A DNA stretch of 64,000 nt from a candidate division FCPU426 bacterium (lineage in GTDB: Bacteria; Oederibacteriota; PGYV01; Palsa-1178): contig CAWIXE010000002.1 of assembly GCA_963840035.1 (NCBI GenBank), positions 992,099 to 1,056,098 of the forward strand, read 5' to 3'. The notes beneath the pieces were generated by a model. That model was not told the origin of the DNA. It was given only the letters and a program-made list of their open reading frames with translations, and did not search any database. How positions within the stretch are numbered: the first letter of the stretch is position 1; each line of letters begins with the position of its first letter. This document shows positions 29,458 to 55,989 of the stretch, piece by piece. Both the position numbers and the translations under genes were made by a program.

Positions 29458-31860
29458 TTAGATCATTTCGAACTTCAAAACAATCTCACCGGATACCGTG
29501 CCAAACCCTGCCTTTTCAAAGATCTTCCTGAGCGTCTCATTATCAGCGCCTTTTCCTTTATAACTTTTTACCGTTACAGACTTAACTTTGCCGTTCTCAA
29601 CCCTGAGCTGTACTTCCAAACCTGTCAGCCCGTTATCCGCAAAGTACTTGTTCAGTTCATTCTTTATCTTCCCAAATACTTCAGTCTCAGCTTCATCCAG
29701 GGTATATCCGGCAGGCACACTGCCGTCGGAAATTGCGAGTGATGAGCCCGCATTTGCTGTTGCCGCATCGTCGGTAGAACTCTTATCCTTCTTCCCCCAC
29801 GAACCAAACCCCAGCTGAAGCTTTGATGACTCTTCTTTTTCTTCAGCCAAATCATACAGCGGTTCAGATGCCGGCGCGTTTGACATCATCTTCATGGCGC
29901 GCGTAGAACTTCCGCCGGAGTATCCTGAGTAATTGGCCGGAGCAGCCGCGGCCTGCAGCTGCGTCCCTACCGCATTATCGCTTACGCCTTCAGGCAGCGG
30001 GAGCGGCTGTTTTACAGTAACCACTTCGCCTGTTTCCCTGACCACTTTATCTACCGCTACAAAAGATGTGTAGGCTGTCATCAGATGGTACTTTAAGCCA
30101 AGCTCTGTCACTTCATCCTTAACATTCGCGCCCACTTTGGAGTAATCATCAAGCCTGGCCACTTTTTCGCGGGCCCAGAGGTACTTAATCGCTTCATTTC
30201 TCGGGTCCTGCTCATATCCGCCCATATTTATTACCTTTTCAAATTTTCCGTTTGCCGACATGCCGGTTACTATTATCCTGCCTGACGCGTGTTTATATTT
30301 GCCCGATATAACCAGAGGCCTCTGCGCGAAAAGGTCCGGGACTGATTCAGGTTCAACGTCATACGCGTCAAAGCCTTCATACTTTACCTTTATGTCCGTC
30401 AATACAGGCGACTTTATGTAACTTATGAACTTATCAGCTGCTGCCTGCGCCTCGTCCTGCCCCGTTACAACGAACGGCTCGCCTTTTCCCATCCTTGCCA
30501 TGCCTTCAATTAAAAACCTGTTCACGGATGTGCCGATGCCGAAAGAGAAAAAGTTTGCGCTGCCCATCTTTTTGGCCATCAGGTCAAAAACTTCCTTTTC
30601 AACCGAGATGTAACCGTCCGTCATCGTAACAATAATGCGCGACATGCCTTCTTTTTTCGCCAGGCCTGAAGCCTTTGTAAAAGCCTCGAGTATTTCAGTG
30701 CCGCCCGAGCCTTCCTGTTTGGTTATCATCTCTATGGCTTTGTTCCTGTTATTGGATGTGGCAGGCATGGGTTTCTCAAAAAGCGTGTTTGACCCGCCGG
30801 CAAAGAACATGATATTGAAGTAGTCCTGTCCGCGCAGGTTTGAAAGTATTTCTTTAATGACTTTCTTGGATATTTCCAGCGGGAACCCGCTCATGGAGCC
30901 TGATACGTCCATAATGAAGAGGTATTCCCTCGGAGGTATCATTGACGCTTCAACCTTTGCCGGAGGCTCTATCATGGTCAGGAAGAAGTTCTCATCCTGC
31001 CCCGGATAAAGAAGCACGCCGGTATTTATGGCATTGCCCCTGAGCGAATACTTAAGGATGAAATCCCTGTTGCCGCCGTTCTCTTCCTTGGGTGATAACG
31101 CGACCTTCACGTTATTGCCGTCTGTAAAGTCGGTAATAATCTTGTGCGACGGCGACCATGCTTTCGCGACCATGATACCCGACTTGATATTCACGTTCAT
31201 GCCGAATGTATACGGCGCAAGCTTGCCTTCGTGCTGATACGGATTAACCGTCCAGTTGTCCTTGCCTTTTAAGTCCTCAGTTGAAGACTCTCCGGTAAAC
31301 CTGGGCCCCACAACCGTCGGAAAAATAAAGCCGTATTCGCCTGCGTCAGGTATGAGCGCTTCGGAATAGTAAACAGTCACTTCTACCTTATCACCGGGCA
31401 TGATGTTCGCCACGTTCATCTGGAAAACATTCGGCCTTTTCTGTTCCAGCAGCGATGCTGTCTTGCCCTGATTCTTTGCCGCTTCGTAAATCTGCCTTGC
31501 CTCTTCAGTTTTGTGGATGTCAGCTTCGATTATTCTGGTCCCTATCTGCATCCTCATGGCGTTAATCGCCGACTTGGTACCCAGAGGAAATACGTAAATC
31601 GCCTCTATGGTTTTCTTCCCGTCATTCTTATAAACCTGTTTGAGTTCGGTCTGAGCCACCATTCCCGCGATGCTCACATTAGCCGTAGTAGAAAGCAAAG
31701 GAAACCCCTCAACATCCCCCGCGCCCTGCACCAGGAAGTAAGGTGAAAGTGACTCCTTATCCTCCTTGGCAAAAAGACTAATCATGCTTAAAGCTAAAAA
31801 CACAACAACAAACAACAACACCTTAACCCTCATCCTTCCCCTTATCCTTAGCTGTTCCAT
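29458..31860 (-). CDS. secreted VIT domain + von Willebrand factor type A domain protein with C-terminal TonB-C-like module
   Basis: Start set at MEQLRIRGRMRVKVLLF (RBS AAGGAGG); vWA MIDAS motif 'FIMDVSGSMSG'; VIT-like N-terminal region. Confidence 0.7.
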   Translation of the reverse strand: MEQLRIRGRMRVKVLLFVVVFLALSMISLFAKEDKESLSPYFLVQGAGDVEGFPLLSTTANVSIAGMVAQTELKQVYKNDGKKTIEAIYVFPLGTKSAINAMRMQIGTRIIEADIHKTEEARQIYEAAKNQGKTASLLEQKRPNVFQMNVANIMPGDKVEVTVYYSEALIPDAGEYGFIFPTVVGPRFTGESSTEDLKGKDNWTVNPYQHEGKLAPYTFGMNVNIKSGIMVAKAWSPSHKIITDFTDGNNVKVALSPKEENGGNRDFILKYSLRGNAINTGVLLYPGQDENFFLTMIEPPAKVEASMIPPREYLFIMDVSGSMSGFPLEISKKVIKEILSNLRGQDYFNIMFFAGGSNTLFEKPMPATSNNRNKAIEMITKQEGSGGTEILEAFTKASGLAKKEGMSRIIVTMTDGYISVEKEVFDLMAKKMGSANFFSFGIGTSVNRFLIEGMARMGKGEPFVVTGQDEAQAAADKFISYIKSPVLTDIKVKYEGFDAYDVEPESVPDLFAQRPLVISGKYKHASGRIIVTGMSANGKFEKVINMGGYEQDPRNEAIKYLWAREKVARLDDYSKVGANVKDEVTELGLKYHLMTAYTSFVAVDKVVRETGEVVTVKQPLPLPEGVSDNAVGTQLQAAAAPANYSGYSGGSSTRAMKMMSNAPASEPLYDLAEEKEESSKLQLGFGSWGKKDKSSTDDAATANAGSSLAISDGSVPAGYTLDEAETEVFGKIKNELNKYFADNGLTGLEVQLRVENGKVKSVTVKSYKGKGADNETLRKIFEKAGFGTVSGEIVLKFEMI

Positions 31861-31972
31861 ATATTTCCTCCTTTTTCCGGGCGTTCGCCCTGTGTTTTGT
31901 GCCTTCACTGAGGAAGACACCAACCCGGGAAAAAGGTTCCATAATAAAACGCATTATTTATAAGGCCATTTG

Positions 31973-32658: not shown

Positions 32659-33705
32659 TTATTTTCCCTGCGACATTTTCAACACCGCGCCTGTTGCCGC
32701 GTCTATTTCAATTCCCGGAACACTGCCGGCCCATCCTTCGACAGGCTTGCCGTCTATTTTCCACACATTATCTTTGAGCAATACCGCATATGGTTTAAAT
32801 GAATCTAATGTTGCTTTATCAAATCCGGCTTTTATCCAGGCCTTTTCCGCGATCTCAACAGCCTGCACTTTTGTAATTGCAGCTTTTATACTTACCCCTG
32901 CTGTTTTTGTAGCGCCCCACGAATCAAAAGCCGCTTGTGACTCAAAACCGGGAGCCGCCTGTTCAGTTGAAACCCCTTTATAAAAATTCAAAGCTGAATC
33001 CTCAGTTTTGTCATATTCATAATTAGCCTTTAATTCGACACTTTCCGCTTGCGGTTCCATTAACCCTAGCGATTTTTTTGCCTTATATTCAATATTGACG
33101 CCTGCCGGTTCCGCGGGTGCCGCGGGCTGCGCCTGTGCTTTTGGCGCTGACGCCGGCATAGCCCTTTTAGCGCCGCTGACCGCCGCGCCTGTATCCTTTT
33201 TTGCCTTCGCAATATCAAATACCGCTTCTGCCTTGCCTGACCCTTTTGAAAGGCCTATTTCTTCATTTAATTCAGCCAGCTTATTATCCATTGCTTTTTC
33301 CTTCACCTGCGTCTCAGCCTCAAATTTTGCCGCGTCTTTTACGCCTGCCGCTGATTTATACTCGGGGGTATTTGTAATCTGCCTTATGAAAAAAGCTATC
33401 AGTATTACCCCAAACCCGGTTGCAAAGGCCCTGAAATACGGGTTAAAGACAAAACTTGCCTTCTTTTTGTCCGCCGCATTGAGCTTTTGGTCAAGCTTCG
33501 CGTAAAAGTTTTGCGGCAGTTCCAGCTCTTTTGCCTTTGTATTTTTAAGCTCATTGACGGCCTTTCGCGTAAGTTCAAGTTCCAACGGGCAGTCTTTGCA
33601 TGTTTTTAAATGCGCTTCGAAATCAGACAACGCTTTGCCCGTCAGTTTCTTATCTATATACTCTGATATGCTGTTGTGGAATTCTTTATGATTCATCTTC
33701 ATCAC
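32659..33705 (-). CDS. anti-sigma factor, zf-HC2 zinc finger, single TM, periplasmic C-terminal domain
   Basis: 'HLKTCKDCPLELELTRKA' zinc-finger; TM 'FATGFGVILIAFFIRQI'; overlaps sigma gene stop. Confidence 0.7.
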   Translation of the reverse strand: MMKMNHKEFHNSISEYIDKKLTGKALSDFEAHLKTCKDCPLELELTRKAVNELKNTKAKELELPQNFYAKLDQKLNAADKKKASFVFNPYFRAFATGFGVILIAFFIRQITNTPEYKSAAGVKDAAKFEAETQVKEKAMDNKLAELNEEIGLSKGSGKAEAVFDIAKAKKDTGAAVSGAKRAMPASAPKAQAQPAAPAEPAGVNIEYKAKKSLGLMEPQAESVELKANYEYDKTEDSALNFYKGVSTEQAAPGFESQAAFDSWGATKTAGVSIKAAITKVQAVEIAEKAWIKAGFDKATLDSFKPYAVLLKDNVWKIDGKPVEGWAGSVPGIEIDAATGAVLKMSQGK

Positions 33706-45468: not shown

Positions 45469-46659
45469 CTAATAAGTTCCGTTGCTGTCCGTTTTAACAA
45501 AATATATGTTATATGAATTTTCGCCTGAAGGATTCTTTACCCATCCTGTTACCGCAATTCCGAAGTCCTTAGAGAGCGCGATACCTCCGAGATAATCGTC
45601 CATTTTGGTCCCGAAATTCCGGCTCCACAAAGGCGTGCCTGAACTGTCAGTCTTTATAATATACAGGTCGCTGCTGCCCTGGGTAAAGGATTCGCTAGTG
45701 GAACCTATTACATAGCCGCCTTTACCGTCGCTAATCACAGACTCACCGAATTCATTCAGCATGTCGCCGTACGTCCTGGCCCATACACAATCCCCTTCGG
45801 CGTCGGTTTTAACCAAGTATATGTCATTATTTTCAGCGGTTGAAACATATGTAGTGCCGCATATCAAATAACCGCGGTCGTCAGTTTGTATTATCTTGGC
45901 AGCGCTGTCATCTAAATTTCCGCCATACGCTCTCGTCCACACCGTATTTCCGCTTAAATCAAATTTTACGATTGCGGCATCAGTTTTTTCTTTTACATTT
46001 TTTACGGCTTCGCCTGAGACAACATATCCCCCGTCAATGCCCGCAATTATGCATTTTGCCTTGAATGAATGAAAACCAGCATCCGTCACTTTCGTCCACA
46101 CGCTGTTTCCGTCCTGATCTATCTTTATCAGCATGCATGAATACCGATTTGATTTAAGGGGGTCATGCGCTGAACCCGCAATTATAAAACCTCCGTCAGA
46201 AGTTTCCATGATGGCAGACGCCTCTTCATTCTCCGCGGTACCGTATGTCCTCAGGAACTTTATATTCCCTTTTTTGTCCGTTCTGACAGCTAAAAAATCA
46301 GCAAGGCCGGCGCCGTATGATGTAGTTGCCCCGGCCATGACAAAATCACCGTTTGAAGCGATTACTACAGAATAGAACCGATCATCCCCAGCTCCGCCAA
46401 AATAATTGTCCCATTGCTTTTTTCCATGACTGTCAAGTTTAAGCAAGTATGCGTCCACATAACCGGCGCCAGCGGCAGTGGACATGCCGGCAATGACATA
46501 ACCGTTATCATCAGTTGCTTTTATATCCCGCGCGCTGTTATATTTTACGCCGGTAATAACAGCGGGTTTTATACGCGAAGGCGGCAATACTGACAGCACG
46601 GCGGCAAATATTCCGGATAAAATAATTACAATAAATATTATAACTGCCATTTTTTTCAT
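45469..46659 (-). CDS. membrane-anchored beta-propeller repeat protein (SBBP-like repeats)
   Basis: N-terminal anchor; six to seven repeats of the pattern 'YGG..D...S...T.DGGY...G.T.S.G.G..D..L.K.D..GN..W'. Confidence 0.5.
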   Translation of the reverse strand: MKKMAVIIFIVIILSGIFAAVLSVLPPSRIKPAVITGVKYNSARDIKATDDNGYVIAGMSTAAGAGYVDAYLLKLDSHGKKQWDNYFGGAGDDRFYSVVIASNGDFVMAGATTSYGAGLADFLAVRTDKKGNIKFLRTYGTAENEEASAIMETSDGGFIIAGSAHDPLKSNRYSCMLIKIDQDGNSVWTKVTDAGFHSFKAKCIIAGIDGGYVVSGEAVKNVKEKTDAAIVKFDLSGNTVWTRAYGGNLDDSAAKIIQTDDRGYLICGTTYVSTAENNDIYLVKTDAEGDCVWARTYGDMLNEFGESVISDGKGGYVIGSTSESFTQGSSDLYIIKTDSSGTPLWSRNFGTKMDDYLGGIALSKDFGIAVTGWVKNPSGENSYNIYFVKTDSNGTY

Positions 46660-46674
46660 ATTATTCTCCGATTG

Positions 46675-46974
46675 TTAAAGGATTTTACTGGCTTTATTAT
46701 TGGATTTATAGACAAACACGAGCACTTCCGCTATGAGTTTGTATAGTTCGGGCGGTATTTCCTGGCCTAAATCAAGCTTCGAAAGCACTTCAATAAGGTC
46801 CGGGTCTTCGTGCATCGGTATGTTATGTTTCCTGGCGAGCTCGATTATCTTATCCGCCATTACCCCTTTACCTTTGGCTACTATTTTAGGGGCCGAATCC
46901 GTATTTTTATCATAATGTATGGCAAGCGCCTGTTTCTTTTTCTGTGGAAGGTTTGGGCTCAGCTTTTCATCCAT
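46675..46974 (-). CDS. FlhB C-terminal-domain paralog (YlqH/FhlB family)
   Basis: 'ALAIHYDKNTDSAPKIVAKGKG...IPPELYKLIAEVLVFVYK' aligns with the FlhB C-terminal domain in this window ('IAVALRYKEGVDGAPTVVAKG...IPNELFQAVAEILAFVYQ') but lacks NPTH. Confidence 0.75.
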   Translation of the reverse strand: MDEKLSPNLPQKKKQALAIHYDKNTDSAPKIVAKGKGVMADKIIELARKHNIPMHEDPDLIEVLSKLDLGQEIPPELYKLIAEVLVFVYKSNNKASKIL

Positions 46975-46976
46975 TA

Positions 46977-49616
46977 TTATGCCTGAAGGTTGATCCTGCC
47001 GACATTTACATAACCTTCACCCGAGGAAGGCGAAGAACCGGCTTTTTCGCTGTCTATTAGTATCTGAAATGCCTTCATATTAAAATTAACAGTATTTAAG
47101 CCTTCCATGAAGTCGTTTTTGCCCCTCATAAGCGCCTGCTTTGCCTTTTCGCTTGCTATGTTTACCGTGCATTCGACGTCGTTCTTATGGATCGTCATGC
47201 TTATCTTCACGCTGCCCAGGTTGGATGTATTTAGCATGAAGACAATATTTACAGGCATTGATTTTTCAAAACTGTCTTTTACTCCGCCTTTCCTGAACCA
47301 CACCTGGACTTCACCGTTAAAGAGTTTGTTGCTTAAGAATACGGGAAGCTGCGCGTATATCATCTCAAATGCAGCGGGTTTCTGGTTTATAAACTGCAGC
47401 GCGTTCATGTTTGTGAGTATGTCCGTTGCAGCGTCCTTTATCTGGCGTATTGATTCCTTGTGGGCGGGGCTTAGCTTGTATGAATCCATATTTTCGGTGA
47501 CCGAGCCCAGCTTAATCAGCGCCGACTTAAGGTTGTCTTTCATGCCCGCAATGTCCGTTGCGAGCCTTGCGGCCGCCTGATTGTTATCCTTTACTATTGA
47601 CTCATTTTTCAGGACAGCGTCCTTTAGTTTGTTCTCAATATTTAGCCCGCTTGATTCCATAAAACTCTTCAACTGCTGTTCTATAACCTGCTGTTTTAAG
47701 TTAGTATCCTCCGGGTTTATGACTACCTGGCGGATGGCGGTTTTTACGGCTTCAGCAGCGTTATACAATGCCGCGATATAAGGGGCATCCTCTTTTGGCA
47801 GGGCGTTTGACTGTTTAAGGCCGTCAAAACGGTTGATGGCATTGGATAGTTTCTCCAGTCCCTGGTTTAATTTCATGTCATCCTTAAAATATTTTCCCAT
47901 GGTATCTATGAATTTGTCATTGCCTGTCGATATATCCCTGGATTTAAGAAACGTCAGCGACTCCACCGTCGATTCGACATCAAATTCCGCGTTGGCAGCC
48001 GTGATCTTTAAAGCCTGGCTTTCCGCAACCCGGGGTTTAATTACGCTGAGCAGCTCGCTTTTCGCCATAAAATCTTTCATAACTGACTGAAATTTTAAAT
48101 AATCTTTGGGCGCTATCATTGTTTCTTCAGGATTATTCGTTATGCCTGTTTTTTGGATCAACTGGGTTATGTTGTCCGCCGCCTTATTTATCTCAGACCT
48201 GAAATTGTTTATCTGGCCCTGGGTTATAACCGATTTATCAACTGATTTATCAAGCCCTTCGCTTAACATCGTTATCCCGACATTTAACTTTGTTATGGCG
48301 GCGGCTATATCCTTAACGTTCTGGGGGAGGTTTGTTTCTCCGGGAGTTAACACATTCCTTTTTAATTCGGCGAATGAATCCCTGATTCCGGTTATTATCT
48401 GTTTCGCCTGCTGGTTTACCGCGTCAAAAATATCCGCTTTCTGATTTATGCCGTCAGGAGCCTTAAGGGCCAAAGCCTGGCTCCCAAGAAGTTTATTTAC
48501 AAAAACGTCCCTTAAGGCATTCGCGGCAGTATTTTCAGAAGCCTGCCCCGTTGACGGGGATGTTATAAACGCCTCCATGTCCGCCTTTAAGCTGCCAAAG
48601 GTTATTTCCAGGTCATTGTTAGGAGACATTGTCATCCTGATGTTTGCTGAATTTATAACGGCAGGCTGCCCGGTGGATACGGCCGCGATCATAACTTTAG
48701 CGTCAGCTGACGATATAAGCCCGTTCTTGACGGAATCATAAACAGCGTTTTCCATAATCTGCTTTGACGCGTTTTTAATTGTTACTGTTACACCGCCCTG
48801 ATTTGCCGCCACATTTATATCCCTGACCTGGCTGGAAACGCCGGCCAGCGTATTTATGATGTTTGTAAATTTTATCGCGGTGCCGGTCTTATCTCCGGAT
48901 GGCTGCGCAAGTGAGACGGCCTGCGCGGGCTGTTTTAGAGATTCCGGCGTATTTGCCGCAGCGGTTTCAAGCGCCTGAAAAGGCTGCGATATCTGAGCGG
49001 CTTCAATGGCGCTTTTGGCTGCATTTGCGGCTTCGGCGCTGAGTTTTATCATCCCTGAAACAAATACTTCTTTGGCCACGGGAAGGGTCTCAATATTCAA
49101 CGCCCTGATATCTATACCTTTTGCGTCCATGTAGCGTATCAGGCTCTGGTTAATATCCGCCATGTTCTGGGCTGTCACAGGCAGGTGATAGTCCATAAGT
49201 TTCTGGGCGATAAAAATATTTTGTTCATTGACAGGCACTTTGATATTTGTCAGCGTCTGCATAATCTGGCTTAATGAAACCTGCTGTCCCTGGAGTTGCG
49301 GGATATCCGCGCCTTTTCCTATATCAGCGGCAGGATTGGGTATTAGTTTCATCATGATCTGATTATTTATCTGCGATACTTCCACATTAATTATGTCGCC
49401 CTTCTGGACGCCCATACCCTGCGGAAGCTGAGATATTATGTTATACCCTTTAAAGTTTATAATGGCTTTATTTTCTCCGGGAATAATGTCAACCACCCTG
49501 CCTTTTAGGGTATCTCCGGGGTTTAATGTGGCGATAAAATCCCTTATGTCCTTATCAGCCGCGTTCAAAAGCTGGAATAAATTTTGATTTACGCTTTGTA
49601 CCGACATTTTTTCCAC
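46977..49616 (-). CDS. large FliK-like (hook-length control domain) protein
   Basis: 879 aa, Gln/Asn/Ala-rich; C-terminal region resembling the FliK Flg_hook domain; flagellar-locus context. Confidence 0.4.
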   Translation of the reverse strand: MEKMSVQSVNQNLFQLLNAADKDIRDFIATLNPGDTLKGRVVDIIPGENKAIINFKGYNIISQLPQGMGVQKGDIINVEVSQINNQIMMKLIPNPAADIGKGADIPQLQGQQVSLSQIMQTLTNIKVPVNEQNIFIAQKLMDYHLPVTAQNMADINQSLIRYMDAKGIDIRALNIETLPVAKEVFVSGMIKLSAEAANAAKSAIEAAQISQPFQALETAAANTPESLKQPAQAVSLAQPSGDKTGTAIKFTNIINTLAGVSSQVRDINVAANQGGVTVTIKNASKQIMENAVYDSVKNGLISSADAKVMIAAVSTGQPAVINSANIRMTMSPNNDLEITFGSLKADMEAFITSPSTGQASENTAANALRDVFVNKLLGSQALALKAPDGINQKADIFDAVNQQAKQIITGIRDSFAELKRNVLTPGETNLPQNVKDIAAAITKLNVGITMLSEGLDKSVDKSVITQGQINNFRSEINKAADNITQLIQKTGITNNPEETMIAPKDYLKFQSVMKDFMAKSELLSVIKPRVAESQALKITAANAEFDVESTVESLTFLKSRDISTGNDKFIDTMGKYFKDDMKLNQGLEKLSNAINRFDGLKQSNALPKEDAPYIAALYNAAEAVKTAIRQVVINPEDTNLKQQVIEQQLKSFMESSGLNIENKLKDAVLKNESIVKDNNQAAARLATDIAGMKDNLKSALIKLGSVTENMDSYKLSPAHKESIRQIKDAATDILTNMNALQFINQKPAAFEMIYAQLPVFLSNKLFNGEVQVWFRKGGVKDSFEKSMPVNIVFMLNTSNLGSVKISMTIHKNDVECTVNIASEKAKQALMRGKNDFMEGLNTVNFNMKAFQILIDSEKAGSSPSSGEGYVNVGRINLQA

Positions 49617-49638
49617 CTTTGTTCTTTATTTATATAAT

Positions 49639-49665
49639 ATATCGGAAATCCGCTGAAAATCTTTA
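49639..49665 (-). promoter_or_regulatory. sigma-28 (FliA)-type promoter TAAA-N15-TCCGATAT
   Basis: On minus strand: TAAA (49665..49662), 15-nt spacer, TCCGATAT (49646..49639); about 25 nt upstream of the FliK-like gene start. Confidence 0.45.
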
Positions 49666-49672
49666 GCGCAAA

Positions 49673-50278
49673 TTAACGCTTAATATTGCGTATTAACTGT
49701 ATTTCGCCCCTTGTAAGGCCGGTTACTTTGGCAATTTCATCCACGGATAGGCCGTTATTTAAAAGGGTATTTATATGCTGGTATTTATCCCTTCCTGCAG
49801 CCTTAAAATCCTTATCCATTACAGGCGCTTCAGCGTTATCTTCCAGGCCGTTAACAACAAGCCTGGACACGGCCGGCGTGTCCTTAACATCCTGTGTGTT
49901 ATCGCCTTCCAGGCTGTCTGATTTTTCGGCAGCGGGTATCTCGGATGGTGTATCATGTATGGCCTCTTTATATTCAGCCTGCCTTCTCAGCTGGTTTCTT
50001 TCCATGAGGTACTTCATCTCATTTATGCGCTCGGTAGCCGCTTTCATGGTCTGCTCAACAGATTTTTTCACTTCCTCCATCGCTATAATCCTTGTATTCG
50101 CGATCACGCTAAGCTCATCAATAAGCGATTTGAGATTTTGCTGGAATTCTATGAGGTCAATGCCTTCAAGTTCGGACATGGGGCCTGATTCGCGGGGTTT
50201 ATTAAGTTTGATAAGAAGAAAAACAACAACAGCTATGAGAATTAAATTTAGGACAACCAGTGTTATGAACATATCCAT
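49673..50278 (-). CDS. hypothetical membrane-anchored protein with C-terminal helix-turn-helix
   Basis: N-terminal TM 'FITLVVLNLILIAVVVFLLI'; C-terminal 'LSVDEIAKVTGLTRGEIQLI'. Confidence 0.45.
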   Translation of the reverse strand: MDMFITLVVLNLILIAVVVFLLIKLNKPRESGPMSELEGIDLIEFQQNLKSLIDELSVIANTRIIAMEEVKKSVEQTMKAATERINEMKYLMERNQLRRQAEYKEAIHDTPSEIPAAEKSDSLEGDNTQDVKDTPAVSRLVVNGLEDNAEAPVMDKDFKAAGRDKYQHINTLLNNGLSVDEIAKVTGLTRGEIQLIRNIKR

Positions 50279-50281
50279 CCT

Positions 50282-50602
50282 TTACGCTTTAATGTCGATT
50301 ATGTAGCCTTCGCCGGGGGATTTAACATCAGTTTCCGGTTTCCGGGAAACGTCAGCCTGCGCCTTTTTTAGGGGCTGTTTTTCTTTCTTAAGCTGTTTTC
50401 CGCGCCGGCCTTCTTCGCTTAAGGCTTTTGACGCGTGTTCTTCCTCGGCTTTCTGGGCCTGGGTAAGTTTAATATTCGCCTGCTCATTTATCTGCATGGC
50501 ATTTTGAGATTGGGCCAGTTGGCCCTGGTTTTGGTTTAAATTATGGAACTTATCCGCGGTGTTTAATGCGCTTATAGCCACCTGTACGTCATGCAGTCTC
50601 AT
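50282..50602 (-). CDS. hypothetical small Gln/Lys-rich protein in flagellar locus
   Basis: 106 aa, no recognised motif; operonic spacing with flanking genes. Confidence 0.35.
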   Translation of the reverse strand: MRLHDVQVAISALNTADKFHNLNQNQGQLAQSQNAMQINEQANIKLTQAQKAEEEHASKALSEEGRRGKQLKKEKQPLKKAQADVSRKPETDVKSPGEGYIIDIKA

Positions 50603-50634: not shown

Positions 50635-52293
50635 TTATCCCGAGTAAGGCAGGATCTGGATTTCGCCGTTTTTCTCGACAAAGGTAGCGTACTTTAACTC
50701 ATCCGATATGGTTCGCTGGACTTTGTTTATCACTATTTTTACGCCGGTGTAAATTATGCCCAGGCAGCTTACTTTGCCTCTTTTGGTTGTCGACATTTCC
50801 TTTGCTTTCGCGTCAAGCTTGGACTTTGTTTCTTCCCATTTTTTCTGGTCGGTCATGAGCTTAAACTGCGTCCTGGTAAGTTTCGCGAGCATATCGCGTT
50901 TGTCGGGAGGCAATGCCCCGCCGGCTTTCGCGCTTAAGTCTTTAAGGAATATTATCCCTTTTTTTGTCTTATCAAGCTGTTCCTCGATATTTTTCAGTTC
51001 AGTGACCGCTTTATTCATCTCTTCCCTCATCTTGGGGGTTTCGCCGATGGATATTTCAGTCGGGGTCGCCATTTTCGCGCCCATTTCCTTCGCTGATACT
51101 TCGTGAGCGGCAGCGATCGTCCCGCCTACAAGCAGGCCTTTGGCACCCTGGACAAGTATTTTCTCGCCGGATATAAGCGTGGAATGCATGGCCGCTTCGT
51201 TGACAATGATTGATTTTTCAGTTTCAACATTGGAGTTCCTGATGTATTTCGCGGTTACTTCCCCGCCGGCAGTCACTTTTGCCTTAACTATGCCGCCCTT
51301 AACAGAAACCTTTCCTCCGCATATAAGCGTCGAGGAATCGGCTACATCGTCAATGATAATATCCTCGCCTGCTTTTATCGTGAATTCGCCGACACTTCCG
51401 TGGACTATTACGGTCCCCACGAAGTCAATATTGCCGATGGATAAATTAACATCGCCCTGTATTTCATATACTTCAAGAACTTCAAGTTTGTTGTTTTTAT
51501 AAACTACCTGTCCGTCATTTGCCGCTACAAAGAGTTCCGGGTTTCCTACGGCAGGTTCAACGCCTTTTCCAAATACAAACTTAACATCAGCGCCGGATGA
51601 AGCGGGTATTTCCTCGCCGGTAACGGTCATTCCGTTAATACCGTTCGTCGGGGATACTTTTCTCGCGAGAGCCTCGCCTTTTTTAACATTCTGAATCGAT
51701 TTCACATTTTTATAATCAACTTTATCCTGATCCGCGCCTTCGGCGGCGGCGGCTTCGTTCATGGAAGTGTCTGACTGGAAAAGAAGCTCAAGTTTTGCGT
51801 CCTCGCCGTTAACCATGGAGGTGCCTTCGGCAACAATGTCCTCAATTGATTCCAGCAATATGGTGGGATCCATCCTGGCTTCAAGTCCTCTTTTTACAAG
51901 CGCCTGAATAATATTTTCTTTGAGGCCGAAAACCACTCCATTTTCAGTAAGCGCGGCTTTGGCTGTCTCGAGTGTTATATCCTTGCCGTTACCCTGCGGG
52001 GGAACGATGGTTAACATAGCCGACATTTTTTCGCTGTCAACTTTTACAAAAATCTGCCCGTCCTTTACGCTTACCTGTTCATGCACTATCAGGATCTGCT
52101 GACCGGTTGACTCGCGTACCGCCCTTTCAACCATGGTCCAGTCAACATCCTTGCCTTTATAGGCGTCCTTTTCAAGCTCGGATTTAACAACTGAAAGGTC
52201 GACTTTTTTCCCTTTGCCTTTTGGCGGGAAAACCGTCAGATAAAGCCCGTCTTCTTCCGTACTAATTGTAGGATAACCGTCCATGTCGACCAT
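50635..52293 (-). CDS. flagellar assembly protein FapA (DUF342 family)
   Basis: 552 aa; beta-helix-like Gly/Val/Ile repeat region; C-terminal coiled coil; adjacent to fliA. Confidence 0.65.
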   Translation of the reverse strand: MVDMDGYPTISTEEDGLYLTVFPPKGKGKKVDLSVVKSELEKDAYKGKDVDWTMVERAVRESTGQQILIVHEQVSVKDGQIFVKVDSEKMSAMLTIVPPQGNGKDITLETAKAALTENGVVFGLKENIIQALVKRGLEARMDPTILLESIEDIVAEGTSMVNGEDAKLELLFQSDTSMNEAAAAEGADQDKVDYKNVKSIQNVKKGEALARKVSPTNGINGMTVTGEEIPASSGADVKFVFGKGVEPAVGNPELFVAANDGQVVYKNNKLEVLEVYEIQGDVNLSIGNIDFVGTVIVHGSVGEFTIKAGEDIIIDDVADSSTLICGGKVSVKGGIVKAKVTAGGEVTAKYIRNSNVETEKSIIVNEAAMHSTLISGEKILVQGAKGLLVGGTIAAAHEVSAKEMGAKMATPTEISIGETPKMREEMNKAVTELKNIEEQLDKTKKGIIFLKDLSAKAGGALPPDKRDMLAKLTRTQFKLMTDQKKWEETKSKLDAKAKEMSTTKRGKVSCLGIIYTGVKIVINKVQRTISDELKYATFVEKNGEIQILPYSG

Positions 52294-52297
52294 TATG

Positions 52298-53068
52298 TCA
52301 CCTCTCCCGTTCCAGTTTCCTGAAACCGCTCCTCAGTTTTATAATCAGTTTTGTATGTATCTGACACACCCTAGATTCAGACACATTCATCGCCATCCCT
52401 ATTTCCTTAAGCGTCAAACCATCCCAGTAATACATCTCAAGCATGGCTCTTTCTTCGTTATCAAACTTTTCTATGATTTCAGCGAGGTGGCTGACAGCTT
52501 CTTTTTTCTCAAATTTCTCGAGTGTGCTGTCACTTTCGCCCATTATGTCTTCAAAATAGAAAGAATCCCCATCGCTGCTAAGGATTTCACTGTCCATAGA
52601 TATAAGAGAAATCCCTTTCATTTTATCGAGTATAACATAAAACTCTTCCTTTGTCATCCTCATTTCTTTCATAATTTCCTCATCATTTGCGGGCCTTCCA
52701 TACTCCGATTCAAAGCGTATATAGGCCTGTTCCAGCTTTTTTATCTGTTCCCTGACGTTCTTTGGAAGCAGATCCTCCTTGCGCAGCGCGTCAATTATGG
52801 CGCCCCTAACCCTTTTTGACGCGAATGTCTCGAATTTGACGTTTTTTTCAAGGTCAAATTTGTCAATGGATTCCATGAGGCCTATTATGCCTTCAATATA
52901 AAGGTCTTCCTTGTCGTTTGAGCGTACTTCCTGCGGAAGGTGTGAGGCTATCCTGTCAGTCATGTATTTAACAAGGGGCATGTAGTTTTTTACAAGCAAT
53001 TCCCTGTCTTTATCATTTTTATTCCTGACGTACCTTTTCCACAACTCGTCCGCATTGATATTGTCCAT
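52298..53068 (-). CDS. fliA: RNA polymerase sigma factor for flagellar operon (sigma-28)
   Basis: sigma-70 regions 2, 3, 4; 'LTLKEIGMAMNVSESRVCQIHTKLIIKLR' region-4 HTH. Confidence 0.9.
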   Translation of the reverse strand: MDNINADELWKRYVRNKNDKDRELLVKNYMPLVKYMTDRIASHLPQEVRSNDKEDLYIEGIIGLMESIDKFDLEKNVKFETFASKRVRGAIIDALRKEDLLPKNVREQIKKLEQAYIRFESEYGRPANDEEIMKEMRMTKEEFYVILDKMKGISLISMDSEILSSDGDSFYFEDIMGESDSTLEKFEKKEAVSHLAEIIEKFDNEERAMLEMYYWDGLTLKEIGMAMNVSESRVCQIHTKLIIKLRSGFRKLERER

Positions 53069-53073
53069 AGCCC

Positions 53074-53427
53074 CTATTTTCCGTAAATATCATCAAATAA
53101 ATCGTCATCCACTTTGGTAACAATGTCTAATTTCTTTCCTTTTATCGGATCGCTTTTCTTTAAACCCGCCGGTTTTTCCGCCGGCATGTTTTTTTTATCA
53201 GCTGTAAATTCTTTAACGGCAGTTTCCGGGCCGTTTTTACCGGCGAAAACCAGCTTTAAGGAATAGAAAACAGCGATAAAAACAATTACTCCTGTTATTA
53301 CCGCGGATAAGACTATTTTAATGATATCCGCGTCATTTACATTTATAAGCCCGCCGATAAAAAAGCCCAATACCCCGGCTAAGATAGCGGCTTCAGCGTA
53401 TGTTTTATTATCAGTTTGTCCGCTCAT
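53074..53427 (-). CDS. hypothetical small membrane protein
   Basis: 117 aa, two hydrophobic helices; overlaps PilZ gene by 4 nt. Confidence 0.4.
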   Translation of the reverse strand: MSGQTDNKTYAEAAILAGVLGFFIGGLINVNDADIIKIVLSAVITGVIVFIAVFYSLKLVFAGKNGPETAVKEFTADKKNMPAEKPAGLKKSDPIKGKKLDIVTKVDDDLFDDIYGK

Positions 53428-53792
53428 TTTTTCTTGTTGGGTTTGGCTTTTACGCCTTCCCTGAGTATGTATTTGATCAGCCTGTCCTGGTCCGGGCCTT
53501 CCAGGTCCTTGAATTTGATAACAGCCTCAAACTGGCCGCCCGATATTTCCTTCATGCCGATTATGGTTCCTGCTGTATCTATCGGCTTTTCCCCGGGAAG
53601 CTTTACCGCTATTTCAAGCAGCGTCCCTTTTTCTATCTTCTTAGGGACAAACATGGTCATGCCGTTCCCGCTTATAGTGTCGGTAAACGATGTATTCGGG
53701 GCTATAGCGGTGCTTGCGAACCTTTCTATTATTACCTTATACTCGATCTCAACCCTTTTCTGAAGCCTTACGTGATCCCTTCTTTCAGCCAT
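53424..53792 (-). CDS. PilZ domain protein in flagellar operon (YcgR/MotI-like c-di-GMP receptor)
   Basis: 'RRDHVR' (RxxxR) and 'DTISGNG' (DxSxxG). Confidence 0.7.
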   Translation of the reverse strand: MAERRDHVRLQKRVEIEYKVIIERFASTAIAPNTSFTDTISGNGMTMFVPKKIEKGTLLEIAVKLPGEKPIDTAGTIIGMKEISGGQFEAVIKFKDLEGPDQDRLIKYILREGVKAKPNKKK

Positions 53793-53809
53793 ATTGCACC
53801 CCCTTTATT

Positions 53810-54766
53810 TCATTTGAATAATTCAAATATTCTTTTAAAGACATTTCCCGCAGCCGCGTTCTTTAAGGCGCCCGCGCTGCCGGCTTCCCTTGTCATGCGC
53901 TGTGATATTTTCGCTGCTATTTCCTTTATGCATTCAGACGCCCTGGAATTCGGATGGAGCACCGTGTAGGGACGCTGGGCCATTACGCTTGAAAGCACAT
54001 TTTTATCCCTGTAAATAAAGCCATATGATTCCACAAAGGTATTTAGAAAGCGGCGGGCTAAAAGCACCACCCTTGACGCGATTTCCTTTGCCTCTTCCTT
54101 TGAATTAACCATGTTTACTATGAGCTTAAGGGGCACTGTTGATTTATTCATGGATGATACTTTTATAAGACCATAAGCATCCATTAACGCCGTAGGTTCC
54201 GGAGTGGTGACTACGATGGAATAATCAGAGGCGTATATGAAGCTCATTGTGTTTCTGCTTATGCCGGCTCCCGTGTCTATGAGCAGTACATCCACCATAT
54301 CCTCAAGCTCAGATATCTTTTCAATAAATTCAGAACGCTGCTGATTGCTTAAGTTGACAAGCTCCTTAACACCCGATCCGCTGGCAATTACCTTAATGCC
54401 GTACTCTGTCTCAGTTATTATATCCTTAATGTCCTTTTCCCCGCGCAGGACATGCACCAGGTTATATTTGGGGTTAATACCGAGCAATATGTCAATATTC
54501 GCAAGGCCTAAATCCGCGTCCAGTATCATTACGCGGTTTCCCATCTTGGATAGTTCAAGCGCCACGTTAACCGTAAAATTAGACTTGCCAACCCCGCCTT
54601 TTCCGCTGGCAACGGCTATGACCTTGGTTGTGGGCCTTGCTTCATGCGAATCAACTATCTCCTCGCCTGTCTCGGGGTCAATTTCTCCGCCGCCTTCAGG
54701 GGATGCGTTCATTGATTCCTGTTTTCTGGATTTTACGAGTTCCCTTAGCCTCTCTGCCTGATCCAT
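53810..54766 (-). CDS. flhG: flagellar number regulator FlhG (MinD-like ATPase)
   Basis: Deviant Walker A 'VIAVASGKGGVGKSNFTVNVA'; follows flhF. Confidence 0.85.
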   Translation of the reverse strand: MDQAERLRELVKSRKQESMNASPEGGGEIDPETGEEIVDSHEARPTTKVIAVASGKGGVGKSNFTVNVALELSKMGNRVMILDADLGLANIDILLGINPKYNLVHVLRGEKDIKDIITETEYGIKVIASGSGVKELVNLSNQQRSEFIEKISELEDMVDVLLIDTGAGISRNTMSFIYASDYSIVVTTPEPTALMDAYGLIKVSSMNKSTVPLKLIVNMVNSKEEAKEIASRVVLLARRFLNTFVESYGFIYRDKNVLSSVMAQRPYTVLHPNSRASECIKEIAAKISQRMTREAGSAGALKNAAAGNVFKRIFELFK

Positions 54767-55989
54767 GTTTCAAAATCTCCTTTGATGACAAGTCTGGATA
54801 TTACTTTTGGGTCCGCGATTTCAAGGTCATCCGGCACTGTCTGCCCGACCGTTAAAAATGATACCGGGATACCGCCTGAACCAACTGAAAGGTTAAGGAG
54901 CATTCCGTAGTTTTTGGTCTCGTCAAGTTTGGTAAAAAGCATCCTGTGTATGGGGACCATACCAAAATTATTAATAACGCTTAAAGCGTCATAATACTTT
55001 GTCATGGCGCTGATGACTATATGTGTTTCAATAGGGGAATGCACTTCAAGGAATTCCTTGAGTTCCGCCAGATGCTGCCTGTTCCTGGGGCTCCTGCCTG
55101 CCGTGTCAAAAAATATGAGATCCTTATCCATGTGCTTGTTAATTACCTTTTTAAAATCAGAAGGCGTCAGTACAATTTCCACCGGAATCCCCATTATCTC
55201 GCCGTATTTCTTAAGCTGCAGGTCCGCCGCTATCCTGTAAGTATCCGCCGTAACCATCACGACGCTTTTGCCTTCTATGAGCGCGTACTTCGCTGCCAGT
55301 TTGGCTATGGTGGTTGTTTTTCCTACGCCCGTGGGGCCTATGAATGCCACTACTTTAGAGCTTCCCGGCGTTGTTTTAATCGGCCCGGATACCTGCACCA
55401 TGTTCGCTATATAATCAAGAAGGTATTGCTCCATGAAGACTTTATTATTTATCTGAGTATCATTTAACTGCGCGTTTATATTCTGAAGCGTGCGGTATAC
55501 AAGGCTTTCCTCAACTCCGTTCTCAATTAACATTTTCTGTATGCGTCCTATACCCTGTTTTAAACTCACGGCAGGCTGCATGGAAGACATTGTCTCGCGC
55601 TGAGGACGCATGGCTGAATTTAAAGCCACTTTGCCTTCACTTAATTCCCTGGCAAGGGCTTCATTTTTCATGGAAATATCTTCAACCCGGTTATATACGG
55701 GCTGCATGGGTTCAAGACGCGGCTGGATATGATGCTGCTGGGATGATTTTTGTTGCTGATTATTTTGCTGCGGTGAATACCGCTGGGGTTCATTCATTGA
55801 CTGGCGGGGTTTCTCGACATTGATGTCTATTCCAGCGGTTACTTCAGTCATTTCCCTTCCAAAAAGCCCGAACACCCCGCCTTTTTTATACTTTTTCGTA
55901 TGAAGTATGACAGCTTCCGGGCCGAAATCCCTCTTAACTTTGGCGAGCGCTTCCTGGAGTGTGTCTGCCTCGTATTTTTTGATCCTCAT
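54745..55989 (-). CDS. flhF: flagellar biosynthesis GTPase FlhF
   Basis: SRP-type GTPase 'VVAFIGPTGVGKTTTIAKLAA', 'DTAGR'; follows flhA. Confidence 0.85.
   Translation of the reverse strand: MRIKKYEADTLQEALAKVKRDFGPEAVILHTKKYKKGGVFGLFGREMTEVTAGIDINVEKPRQSMNEPQRYSPQQNNQQQKSSQQHHIQPRLEPMQPVYNRVEDISMKNEALARELSEGKVALNSAMRPQRETMSSMQPAVSLKQGIGRIQKMLIENGVEESLVYRTLQNINAQLNDTQINNKVFMEQYLLDYIANMVQVSGPIKTTPGSSKVVAFIGPTGVGKTTTIAKLAAKYALIEGKSVVMVTADTYRIAADLQLKKYGEIMGIPVEIVLTPSDFKKVINKHMDKDLIFFDTAGRSPRNRQHLAELKEFLEVHSPIETHIVISAMTKYYDALSVINNFGMVPIHRMLFTKLDETKNYGMLLNLSVGSGGIPVSFLTVGQTVPDDLEIADPKVISRLVIKGDFETWIRQRG

Follow-up and report, generated by a model that had tools for sequence, protein, structure and literature searches.

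FipA (FlhF interaction partner A), studied in Vibrio parahaemolyticus, Pseudomonas putida and Shewanella putrefaciens, spans the membrane once and has a coiled region and, at its C terminus, a DUF2802 domain; its orthologue in V. cholerae is FlrD (PMC11620751). FipA binds FlhF via conserved DUF2802 residues and is required for polar FlhF localisation and for flagellation (PMC11620751). In P. putida the fipA/flrD gene (PP_4331) lies at the end of the flhA...fliA operon, and beside it PP_4328 (fliK2) and PP_4329 (flhX) form a FliA-dependent operon (bioRxiv 10.1101/2021.08.29.457346); a linkage of flhX with fliK is mentioned for Nitratiruptor as well. Pallen et al. were the first to note FlhX, which is described as partly substituting for FlhB-CC, the cleaved C-terminal portion of FlhB, in Helicobacter pylori (bioRxiv 10.1101/2021.08.29.457346). 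Here we describe a comparable arrangement in a 64,000-nucleotide stretch of DNA (hereafter the window) from a candidate division FCPU426 bacterium (assembly GCA_963840035.1, contig CAWIXE010000002.1), in which a block of four genes at positions 46675-50602 follows the sigma-28 gene fliA and fapA. With three of the four proteins the block adds new members to flagellar families already described, in an arrangement that is likewise described, and in this respect the locus is ordinary.

A conserved four-gene block at the end of the flagellar operon

All four open reading frames (ORFs) of the block were confirmed on the minus strand, directly 3′ of fliA and fapA, and the gene content given in a preliminary description of this DNA was correct. 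The ORFs encode a 106-amino-acid (aa) Gln/Lys-rich protein (QK106, 50282-50602), a 201-aa DUF2802 protein (49673-50278), an 879-aa FliK-like protein (FliK2, 46977-49616) and a 99-aa stand-alone homologue of FlhB-CC (FlhX, 46675-46974). The four proteins were found in the same order in 12 related loci, where their identities to the window proteins are 33-46% for QK106, 31-53% for the DUF2802 protein, 29-43% for FliK2 and, against this, 71-80% for FlhX. Because conservation at the protein level and the common order persist in relatives down to 31-40% identity, we regard the four genes as real. The relatives are metagenome-assembled genomes that carry the labels candidate division FCPU426, Candidatus Goldiibacteriota/Goldbacteria, "uncultured Spirochaetia" or "bacterium". 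The whole block is syntenic in every one of these that was examined, a comparison suggested in the preliminary description, and the gene order from flhF to fapA, 5′ of the block, is likewise kept.

The genes are closely packed, with 32 bp between fapA and the QK106 gene, 3 bp between the QK106 and DUF2802 genes and 2 nt between the fliK2 stop codon and the flhX ATG. The sole larger gap, 65 bp 5′ of the fliK2 ATG, contains a sigma-28 type promoter. We think it probable that the block comprises the tail of a Bacillus/spirochaete-style flagellar super-operon followed by a short late operon. The first operon would read ...fliMNOPQR-flhBAFG-pilZ-tm117-fliA-fapA-qk106-fipA, with a FipA/FlrD-type protein encoded at its end, and the second would encode FliK2, FlhX and, probably, an exported beta-propeller protein.

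In hidden Markov model searches of the kind suggested in the preliminary description, Flg_hook, Bac_export_2 and DUF2802 all scored above Pfam gathering or cutoff scores, while matches to helix-turn-helix (HTH) families were weak. A known family could thus be given for three of the four proteins, the 106-aa protein being the exception, and a role is established only for FipA and partly for FlhX. The earlier view of these genes as poorly characterised is fair for FliK2, FlhX and the small protein; it does not hold for the 201-aa protein, which likely belongs to the experimentally studied FipA/FlrD family.

The fliK2-flhX pair and its sigma-28 promoter

The 99-aa protein (46675-46974) matches Bac_export_2 with 75.5 bits over profile positions 262-335 of 335, far above the cutoff, and is 43% identical to residues 272-350 of the FlhB encoded in the window. 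Full-length window FlhB carries the NPTH autocleavage motif (...VVITNPTHIAVALRY). The FlhX alignment begins at the residue after this motif (QKKKQ-ALAIHYD), and FlhX has QKKK at the NPTH position and no NPTH of its own, a lack already noted from the letters of the sequence. The protein is without a membrane domain and, from residue 5 of the chain onwards, aligns with crystallised FlhB-CC (3b1s_B and 3b0z_B). Furthermore, it retains A-P (28-29) and A..L (82-85) at positions aligned to A286/P287 and A341/L344 of Salmonella FlhB, residues that are said, from the 2013 work of Evans et al., to form a substrate-docking pocket. In its size (~90-100 aa), its equivalence to post-cleavage FlhB-CC and its want of a membrane domain and of NPTH, the protein is like FlhX (HP1575) of H. 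pylori and the TIGR00789 family; it differs in its predicted sigma-28 promoter, shared with a FliK paralogue. YlqH of Bacillus subtilis is presumably another protein of this FlhX/TIGR00789 type.

The preceding gene encodes a protein with a Pfam Flg_hook match at residues 790-858 (36.7 bits against 29.8). Its GTG start at 49616 would give 879 aa (46977-49616) and an ATG start at 49607 would give 876 aa (46977-49607). The ATG is the likelier start because the GTG falls inside the ribosome-binding site AGGTGG, which the ATG follows by 5 nt; 876 aa is also the length of the product in the public protein collection. Among the relatives the first ~160 and the last ~160 residues of FliK2 are conserved, while the middle is only 11-30% conserved and of variable length, with total lengths of 518-945 aa. 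Judged from its sequence, FliK2 is ruler-like in build, with a C-terminal domain of the type III secretion substrate specificity switch (T3S4) type.

Early flagellar export substrates have a hydrophobic N-terminal signal and a gate-recognition motif that docks in a hydrophobic pocket of FlhB-C (PMC8983047). An alignment of FliK2 N termini (A4) revealed small non-polar residues at 2-6 and, about 20 residues further on, an invariant F24-x-x-x-(L/V/I)28 (49524-49538, minus strand), and the FliK2 N terminus resembles such export signals, a likeness that we treat as a mechanistic lead and not as evidence. Because both this motif and the pocket-aligned residues of FlhX are kept, FliK2 may dock on FlhX or FlhB in the manner of an early export substrate. 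Searches of PDB sequences with FliK2 and with its N-terminal domain gave nothing useful. In 5 of 10 lineage members the N-terminal 200 aa (49008-49607, minus strand, in the window) match Pfam DUF6240 weakly, with E = 6.8e-4 at best, a hint that FliK2-like relatives exist in other phyla.

The promoter that precedes fliK2-flhX, TAAAGATTTTCAGCGGATTTCCGATAT at 49639-49665 on the minus strand, has the form TAAA-N15-tCCGATAT. The sigma-28 consensus is TAAA-N15-GCCGATAA/T, and the -10 element of the window promoter agrees with it at 7 of 8 positions. The pattern occurs once in the whole window, against 0.21 matches expected by chance. Eight related loci were examined at the same intergenic gap, and six of them (L004, L005, L007, L009, L010 and L011) carry TAAAG-N14/15-CCGATAT there; L001 retains the -10 element alone and L008 is without the promoter. 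Because the same motif is kept at the same gap in relatives, and not because of the window match alone, we consider the predicted sigma-28 promoter upstream of fliK2 to be real, in agreement with its earlier proposal for the last two genes of the block. We infer that fliK2-flhX is FliA dependent in this lineage as well, and expression of the second operon would then be expected only once the hook-basal body is complete.

By these sequence features, the 879-aa and 99-aa genes match the fliK2-flhX pair of P. putida. In both organisms a gene for a Flg_hook protein comes directly before one for a FlhB-C homologue that stands alone, and a FliA-type promoter precedes the two. The pair adjoins fipA/flrD where the flhA-fliA operon ends, and there is a separate canonical fliK, seen here in a relative. 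The two loci differ in that the pair is co-directional with fipA in the window and on the opposite strand in P. putida, and in that a beta-propeller gene is seemingly appended to the operon here. The likeness to P. putida FliK2 consists of a shared domain, gene order and promoter type. Several points weigh against the match. The score of the window FlhX for TIGR00789 (flhB_rel, NCBIfam) is slightly below the curated cutoff (110.7 bits against 117.35), a near miss that covers positions 2-83 of 84. The promoter pattern was matched at least once in 21 of 100 shuffles, and the match alone is statistically weak. Finally, FliK2 has no known function in any organism, and what is known of FlhX is limited to its partly replacing FlhB-CC in H. 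pylori.

In the mechanism that we propose, FliK2 would be a second, deeply diverged FliK-type protein and FlhX a soluble copy of FlhB-CC, the usual target of the FliK T3S4 domain. The two proteins, whose 2-nt gene spacing suggests coupled translation, would act jointly at a late stage of assembly, with the export gate as their target. FlhX would dock at the FlhB-CC site or serve as a soluble FlhB-CC mimic, FliK2 would be an exported early-type substrate or a partner of FlhX, and the joint effect would be to tune the substrate-specificity switch or to lock it.

Alternatively, FlhX could be a spare part only, replacing or backing up cleaved FlhB-CC as proposed in H. pylori, with FliK2 functionally unrelated to it or a decaying duplicate. 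The end-to-end match of FlhX to FlhB-CC chains and its conserved pocket-aligned residues are compatible with this idea, and so is the partial substitution for FlhB-CC by FlhX in H. pylori. We nevertheless consider it unlikely, since fliK2 and flhX are immediate neighbours here and are linked in Pseudomonas and Nitratiruptor too, and the conservation of the N- and C-terminal regions of FliK2 speaks against decay. Moreover, late sigma-28 timing would be ill-suited to the backup of a gate part that is needed early. The retention of the pair, its order and its sigma-28 promoter across very distant bacteria supports a real late flagellar function of FliK2-FlhX.

A likely FipA/FlrD-type DUF2802 protein

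The 201-aa protein (49673-50278, minus strand) matches Pfam DUF2802 (PF10975) at residues 163-200 with 37.0 bits against a gathering score of 33.5. A match to PF10975 is precomputed for most of 63 lineage relatives, and the NCBI name of one relative is DUF2802 domain-containing protein of Candidatus Goldbacteria. The gene has a second ATG at 50272, which is the start used in the public collection and gives 199 aa. The genes flhA, flhF, flhG and fliA are located upstream of it on the same strand and in the same operon.

An AlphaFold2 (AF2) model built with an 18-sequence alignment has helices at residues 2-25 (membrane), 34-108 (long) and then 157-174, 179-186 and 190-200, the last three forming a C-terminal HTH-like unit; residues 112-160 are disordered. 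A hydrophobic stretch at 4-23 lies within the modelled helix 2-25 (predicted local distance difference test, pLDDT, ~90) and is followed by K24, K27 and R29 in keeping with the positive-inside rule. These features indicate a single N-terminal membrane helix with the bulk of the protein cytoplasmic. The helical region of the FipA type is present in the model as well, as the long helix 34-108, which is unbroken (pLDDT 85-96).

The C-terminal motif of the window protein reads NN-G176-LSVDEIAKVTG-L188-TRG-E192-IQ-L195-IRN. FipA segments for comparison were decoded from the mutagenic primers of the FipA study: ...ATKMVQL-G110-ADINELI... and ...ECELPKA-E126-AE-L129-MLSL... in V. parahaemolyticus (Vp), and ...ELTQSCG-L116-TQAEAE-L123-M... 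in P. putida (Pp), in which G104 was mutated as well (PMC11620751). G176, L188, E192 and L195 align with Vp G110/E126/L129 and Pp G104/L116/L123, and the spacings of 12, 16 and 19 are identical. Each of the four residues is invariant or at least 90% conserved in 18 lineage members (alignment A1). Because these conserved motif residues are those shown to contact FlhF, we favour FlhF binding over DNA binding as the activity of the protein, which, by analogy, is likely of the FipA/FlrD type.

In common with FipA (VP2224, PP_4331 and Sputcn32_2550) and FlrD, the protein begins with a single membrane helix, continues with a helix or coiled coil in the cytoplasm and carries at its C terminus the DUF2802 motif G...L...E..L. 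Its gene is the last of an operon with flhA, flhF, flhG and fliA, and adjoins fliK2-flhX as in P. putida. It differs from FipA in its length (201 aa, against 163 aa in Vibrio), in a 50-residue disordered linker between the long helix and the motif, and in its host, which is not a gammaproteobacterium but a candidate-phylum bacterium with a Bacillus/spirochaete-like operon and relatives labelled Goldbacteria/FCPU426; FlhF binding is here a prediction. SwrB of B. subtilis is also a single-pass membrane protein encoded by the last gene of the fla/che operon, past the sigma-28 gene. This analogy is positional only, and no homologues with a known function are reported in the paper on SwrB.

Other observations count against this assignment. 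The DUF2802 match takes in only the last 38 residues of the protein and profile positions 30-67 of 68. A word-indexed search with the lineage DUF2802 profile returned lineage members and one unrelated non-flagellar protein (P0115) and did not reach gammaproteobacterial FipA. FipA is said to be confined to polar flagellates among the gammaproteobacteria and to be absent from Bacillus, epsilonproteobacteria and spirochaetes (PMC11620751). To assume that a protein of a candidate phylum, encoded in a Bacillus-like operon, is functionally equivalent to FipA is therefore an extrapolation.

The preliminary description had instead seen in this protein a membrane-tethered HTH and hence an unusual candidate regulator. 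If so, the HTH would bind flagellar promoters and couple the state of the membrane or of assembly to gene expression. The predicted structure does show the three-helix, HTH-like C terminus that had been expected, and nearly all of the best Foldseek matches in the PDB are HTH DNA-binding domains, of a serine recombinase, TrpR, sigma region 4, LuxR-type regulators and IstA, with root mean square deviations of 0.5-1.3 A across ~35 columns. Weak Pfam HTH_7 and NCBIfam matches to the 201-aa protein point the same way, and the V. cholerae orthologue FlrD has been described as an activator of flagellar gene expression. HTH is a fair description of the modelled C-terminal fold, given a Foldseek list that is consistent but weak: no fold match was significant, none having E <= 0.001. 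A role as a true transcription factor seems improbable to us, however, because in three species the conserved motif residues mediate FlhF binding and loss of this contact reproduces the deletion phenotype (PMC11620751). The effect of FlrD mirrors that of FlhF, and DNA binding has never been reported for the DUF2802/FipA family. The label of regulator thus gives way to that of a DUF2802 protein of the FipA/FlrD type, a family that binds FlhF via the same motif (PMC11620751).

As a FipA-type protein, the 201-aa product would bind FlhF, an SRP-type GTPase (SRP, signal recognition particle), through its C-terminal DUF2802 motif, and would hold and activate FlhF at the membrane site of the future flagellum. 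This activity has been shown in three gammaproteobacteria and is predicted for the present lineage. In the defining study of FipA the family was regarded as in essence confined to gammaproteobacteria and linked to polar flagellation (PMC11620751), and the present lineage extends this range, in that the locus puts FipA-type DUF2802 proteins and the fipA/fliK2-flhX neighbourhood in a candidate phylum with a Bacillus/spirochaete-style operon.

Weaker similarities of the 201-aa protein were seen elsewhere. It matches Pfam DUF6115 nearly over its full length (E = 1e-3), and no mention of DUF6115 was found in the literature. A search of PDB sequences gave nothing useful, the only hit being a "CAP repeat" entry (E = 0.004). 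Its last 32 residues resemble (E = 9e-5) the C terminus of the spirochaete coiled-coil family SpiroCoCo_C of NCBIfam. Coiled-coil proteins of Firmicutes and spirochaetes, groups said to lack FipA, may thus end in the same C-terminal motif.

A canonical FliK in a close relative

On the upstream side of the flagellar operon the window ends at fliM. Scanning metagenomes with FliM gave the stretch that lies upstream of fliM in a close relative (L022), on the same 213,881-bp contig as the related locus L005. There the gene order is fliI, fliJ, a gene for a 753-aa FliK, flgD, a small Flagellar_put (PF12611) gene between flgD and flgE (L022 4917-5321), flgE, flbD, motA, motB and fliL. The 753-aa protein, encoded between fliJ and flgD at L022 2122-4383, has a Flg_hook match of 58.6 bits and represents the canonical FliK of the lineage. 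L005 carries its own 837-aa FliK2 on the same contig. BLASTP revealed no similarity between the window FliK2 and this canonical FliK.

Because the lineage has a canonical FliK between fliJ and flgD, we interpret the 879-aa protein as a second FliK paralogue. Like FliK, FliK2 has a C-terminal T3S4-type domain and conserved ends around a middle of variable length, and its hydrophobic extreme N terminus and invariant F-x-x-x-(L/V/I) at 24-28 resemble the export signals of early substrates. FliK2 differs in that its gene is not at the fliJ-flgD position but past fipA, behind the sigma-28 promoter, in that the late expression predicted for it is at odds with a part in measuring hook length, and in that its N-terminal region is conserved and perhaps folded. 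It is very improbable that the 879-aa protein is the sole hook-length ruler, a true FliK moved to the end of the operon, despite its Flg_hook domain and ruler-like variable middle, since the close relative has a canonical FliK at fliJ-flgD together with its own 837-aa FliK2, the two types share no BLASTP similarity, and a sigma-28 promoter would give expression after hook completion.

The gene order of L022 is of the Bacillus/spirochaete type, an unusual setting for a FipA-type gene.

The 106-amino-acid protein family

At its N terminus QK106 (50282-50602, minus strand) has a conserved helix with MRLHDVQV...QQQGQxAQSQNA, and at its C terminus a conserved G-x-IIDIK(A/V); the middle is charged and variable (lineage alignment A2). 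Scans of QK106 and 22 relatives against Pfam and NCBIfam produced noise only and no match. Among 1.84 billion protein representatives, a profile search returned 43 family members of 91-113 aa, matched end to end. The AF2 model consists of one helix, residues 3-57, of modest confidence (pLDDT ~80), with a disordered tail. Distant members are encoded after fliA (L014 7288-7626), after fliA-fapA (L015 7788-8117) and after fliL (L016 1247-1579). By its sequence conservation and gene context QK106 represents a genuine, unnamed, flagellum-linked small family, and we take it to be a mostly helical and disordered accessory protein. The contigs of L014, L015 and L016 are unrelated, and no DUF2802 gene was seen beside the QK106 member within the part of each contig that was available.

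Two named families were tried and set aside. We take QK106 to resemble YjfB, a putative motility protein, in its Gln-rich N terminus and its C-terminal G-x-x-ID-I-K-V, a resemblance that the PF14070 scan did not support: none of 23 family members matched PF14070 at E up to 1-10. FlgM was dropped because no match to it appeared in the Pfam and NCBIfam scans.

The locus, from an uncultured organism, does not overturn current understanding. What it adds is to flag an unnamed family of ~105-aa proteins at the ends of flagellar operons. A bolder reading, which is speculative and in our judgement rather unlikely as a whole, would join three elements. First, FliK2-FlhX would be a second, sigma-28-timed FliK-C/FlhB-C switch pair present from Pseudomonas to a candidate phylum, with export signals of early substrates on FliK2 and docking-pocket residues retained on FlhX; once the hook is complete it would act as a soluble decoy or lock that holds the gate in its late mode, or would measure a later structure. 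Second, the 106-aa protein would represent a new small flagellar family at the operon ends of several lineages, and third, FipA-type control of FlhF would reach well beyond the gammaproteobacteria.

Neighbouring genes

The flagellar operon of the window is ordered fliM, fliN/Y, fliO, fliP, fliQ, fliR, flhB, flhA, flhF, flhG, a PilZ-domain gene, a 117-aa protein gene, fliA and fapA. Pfam and NCBIfam matches identify flhF (54745-55989), fliA (52298-53068) and fapA (50635-52293), all on the minus strand. The part from flhF to fapA (50635-55989, minus strand), which includes flhG, the PilZ-domain gene and the gene of the 117-aa membrane protein, is the upstream portion of the same operon that runs into the block.

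Downstream of the block, a gene at 45469-46659 (minus strand) encodes a 396-aa membrane-anchored SBBP-repeat beta-propeller protein, with a weak match to an NCBIfam SBBP lipoprotein family. It begins 15 bp past the flhX stop codon, no terminator-like site lies between the two genes, and a terminator-like hairpin with a T-run (45465-45450, minus strand) is found directly 3′ of it. Because of the 15-bp gap, and because this is the only terminator-like hairpin, the beta-propeller gene is probably the third gene of the predicted sigma-28 transcript, co-transcribed with fliK2-flhX. It is syntenic in most relatives and missing from L011 and L057.

Positions 1-42000 of the window hold housekeeping genes and no flagellar content. 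This part includes a zf-HC2 anti-sigma-like protein that also carries an NTF2-fold immunity domain (32659-33705, minus strand) and, near it, a large VIT/VWA protein (29458-31923, minus strand), both unrelated to the flagellar block. Within the flagellar operon, the 117-aa protein encoded between the PilZ-domain gene and fliA (53074-53427, minus strand) is a predicted membrane protein without a family match, and it is kept at the same position throughout the lineage with 30-48% identity.

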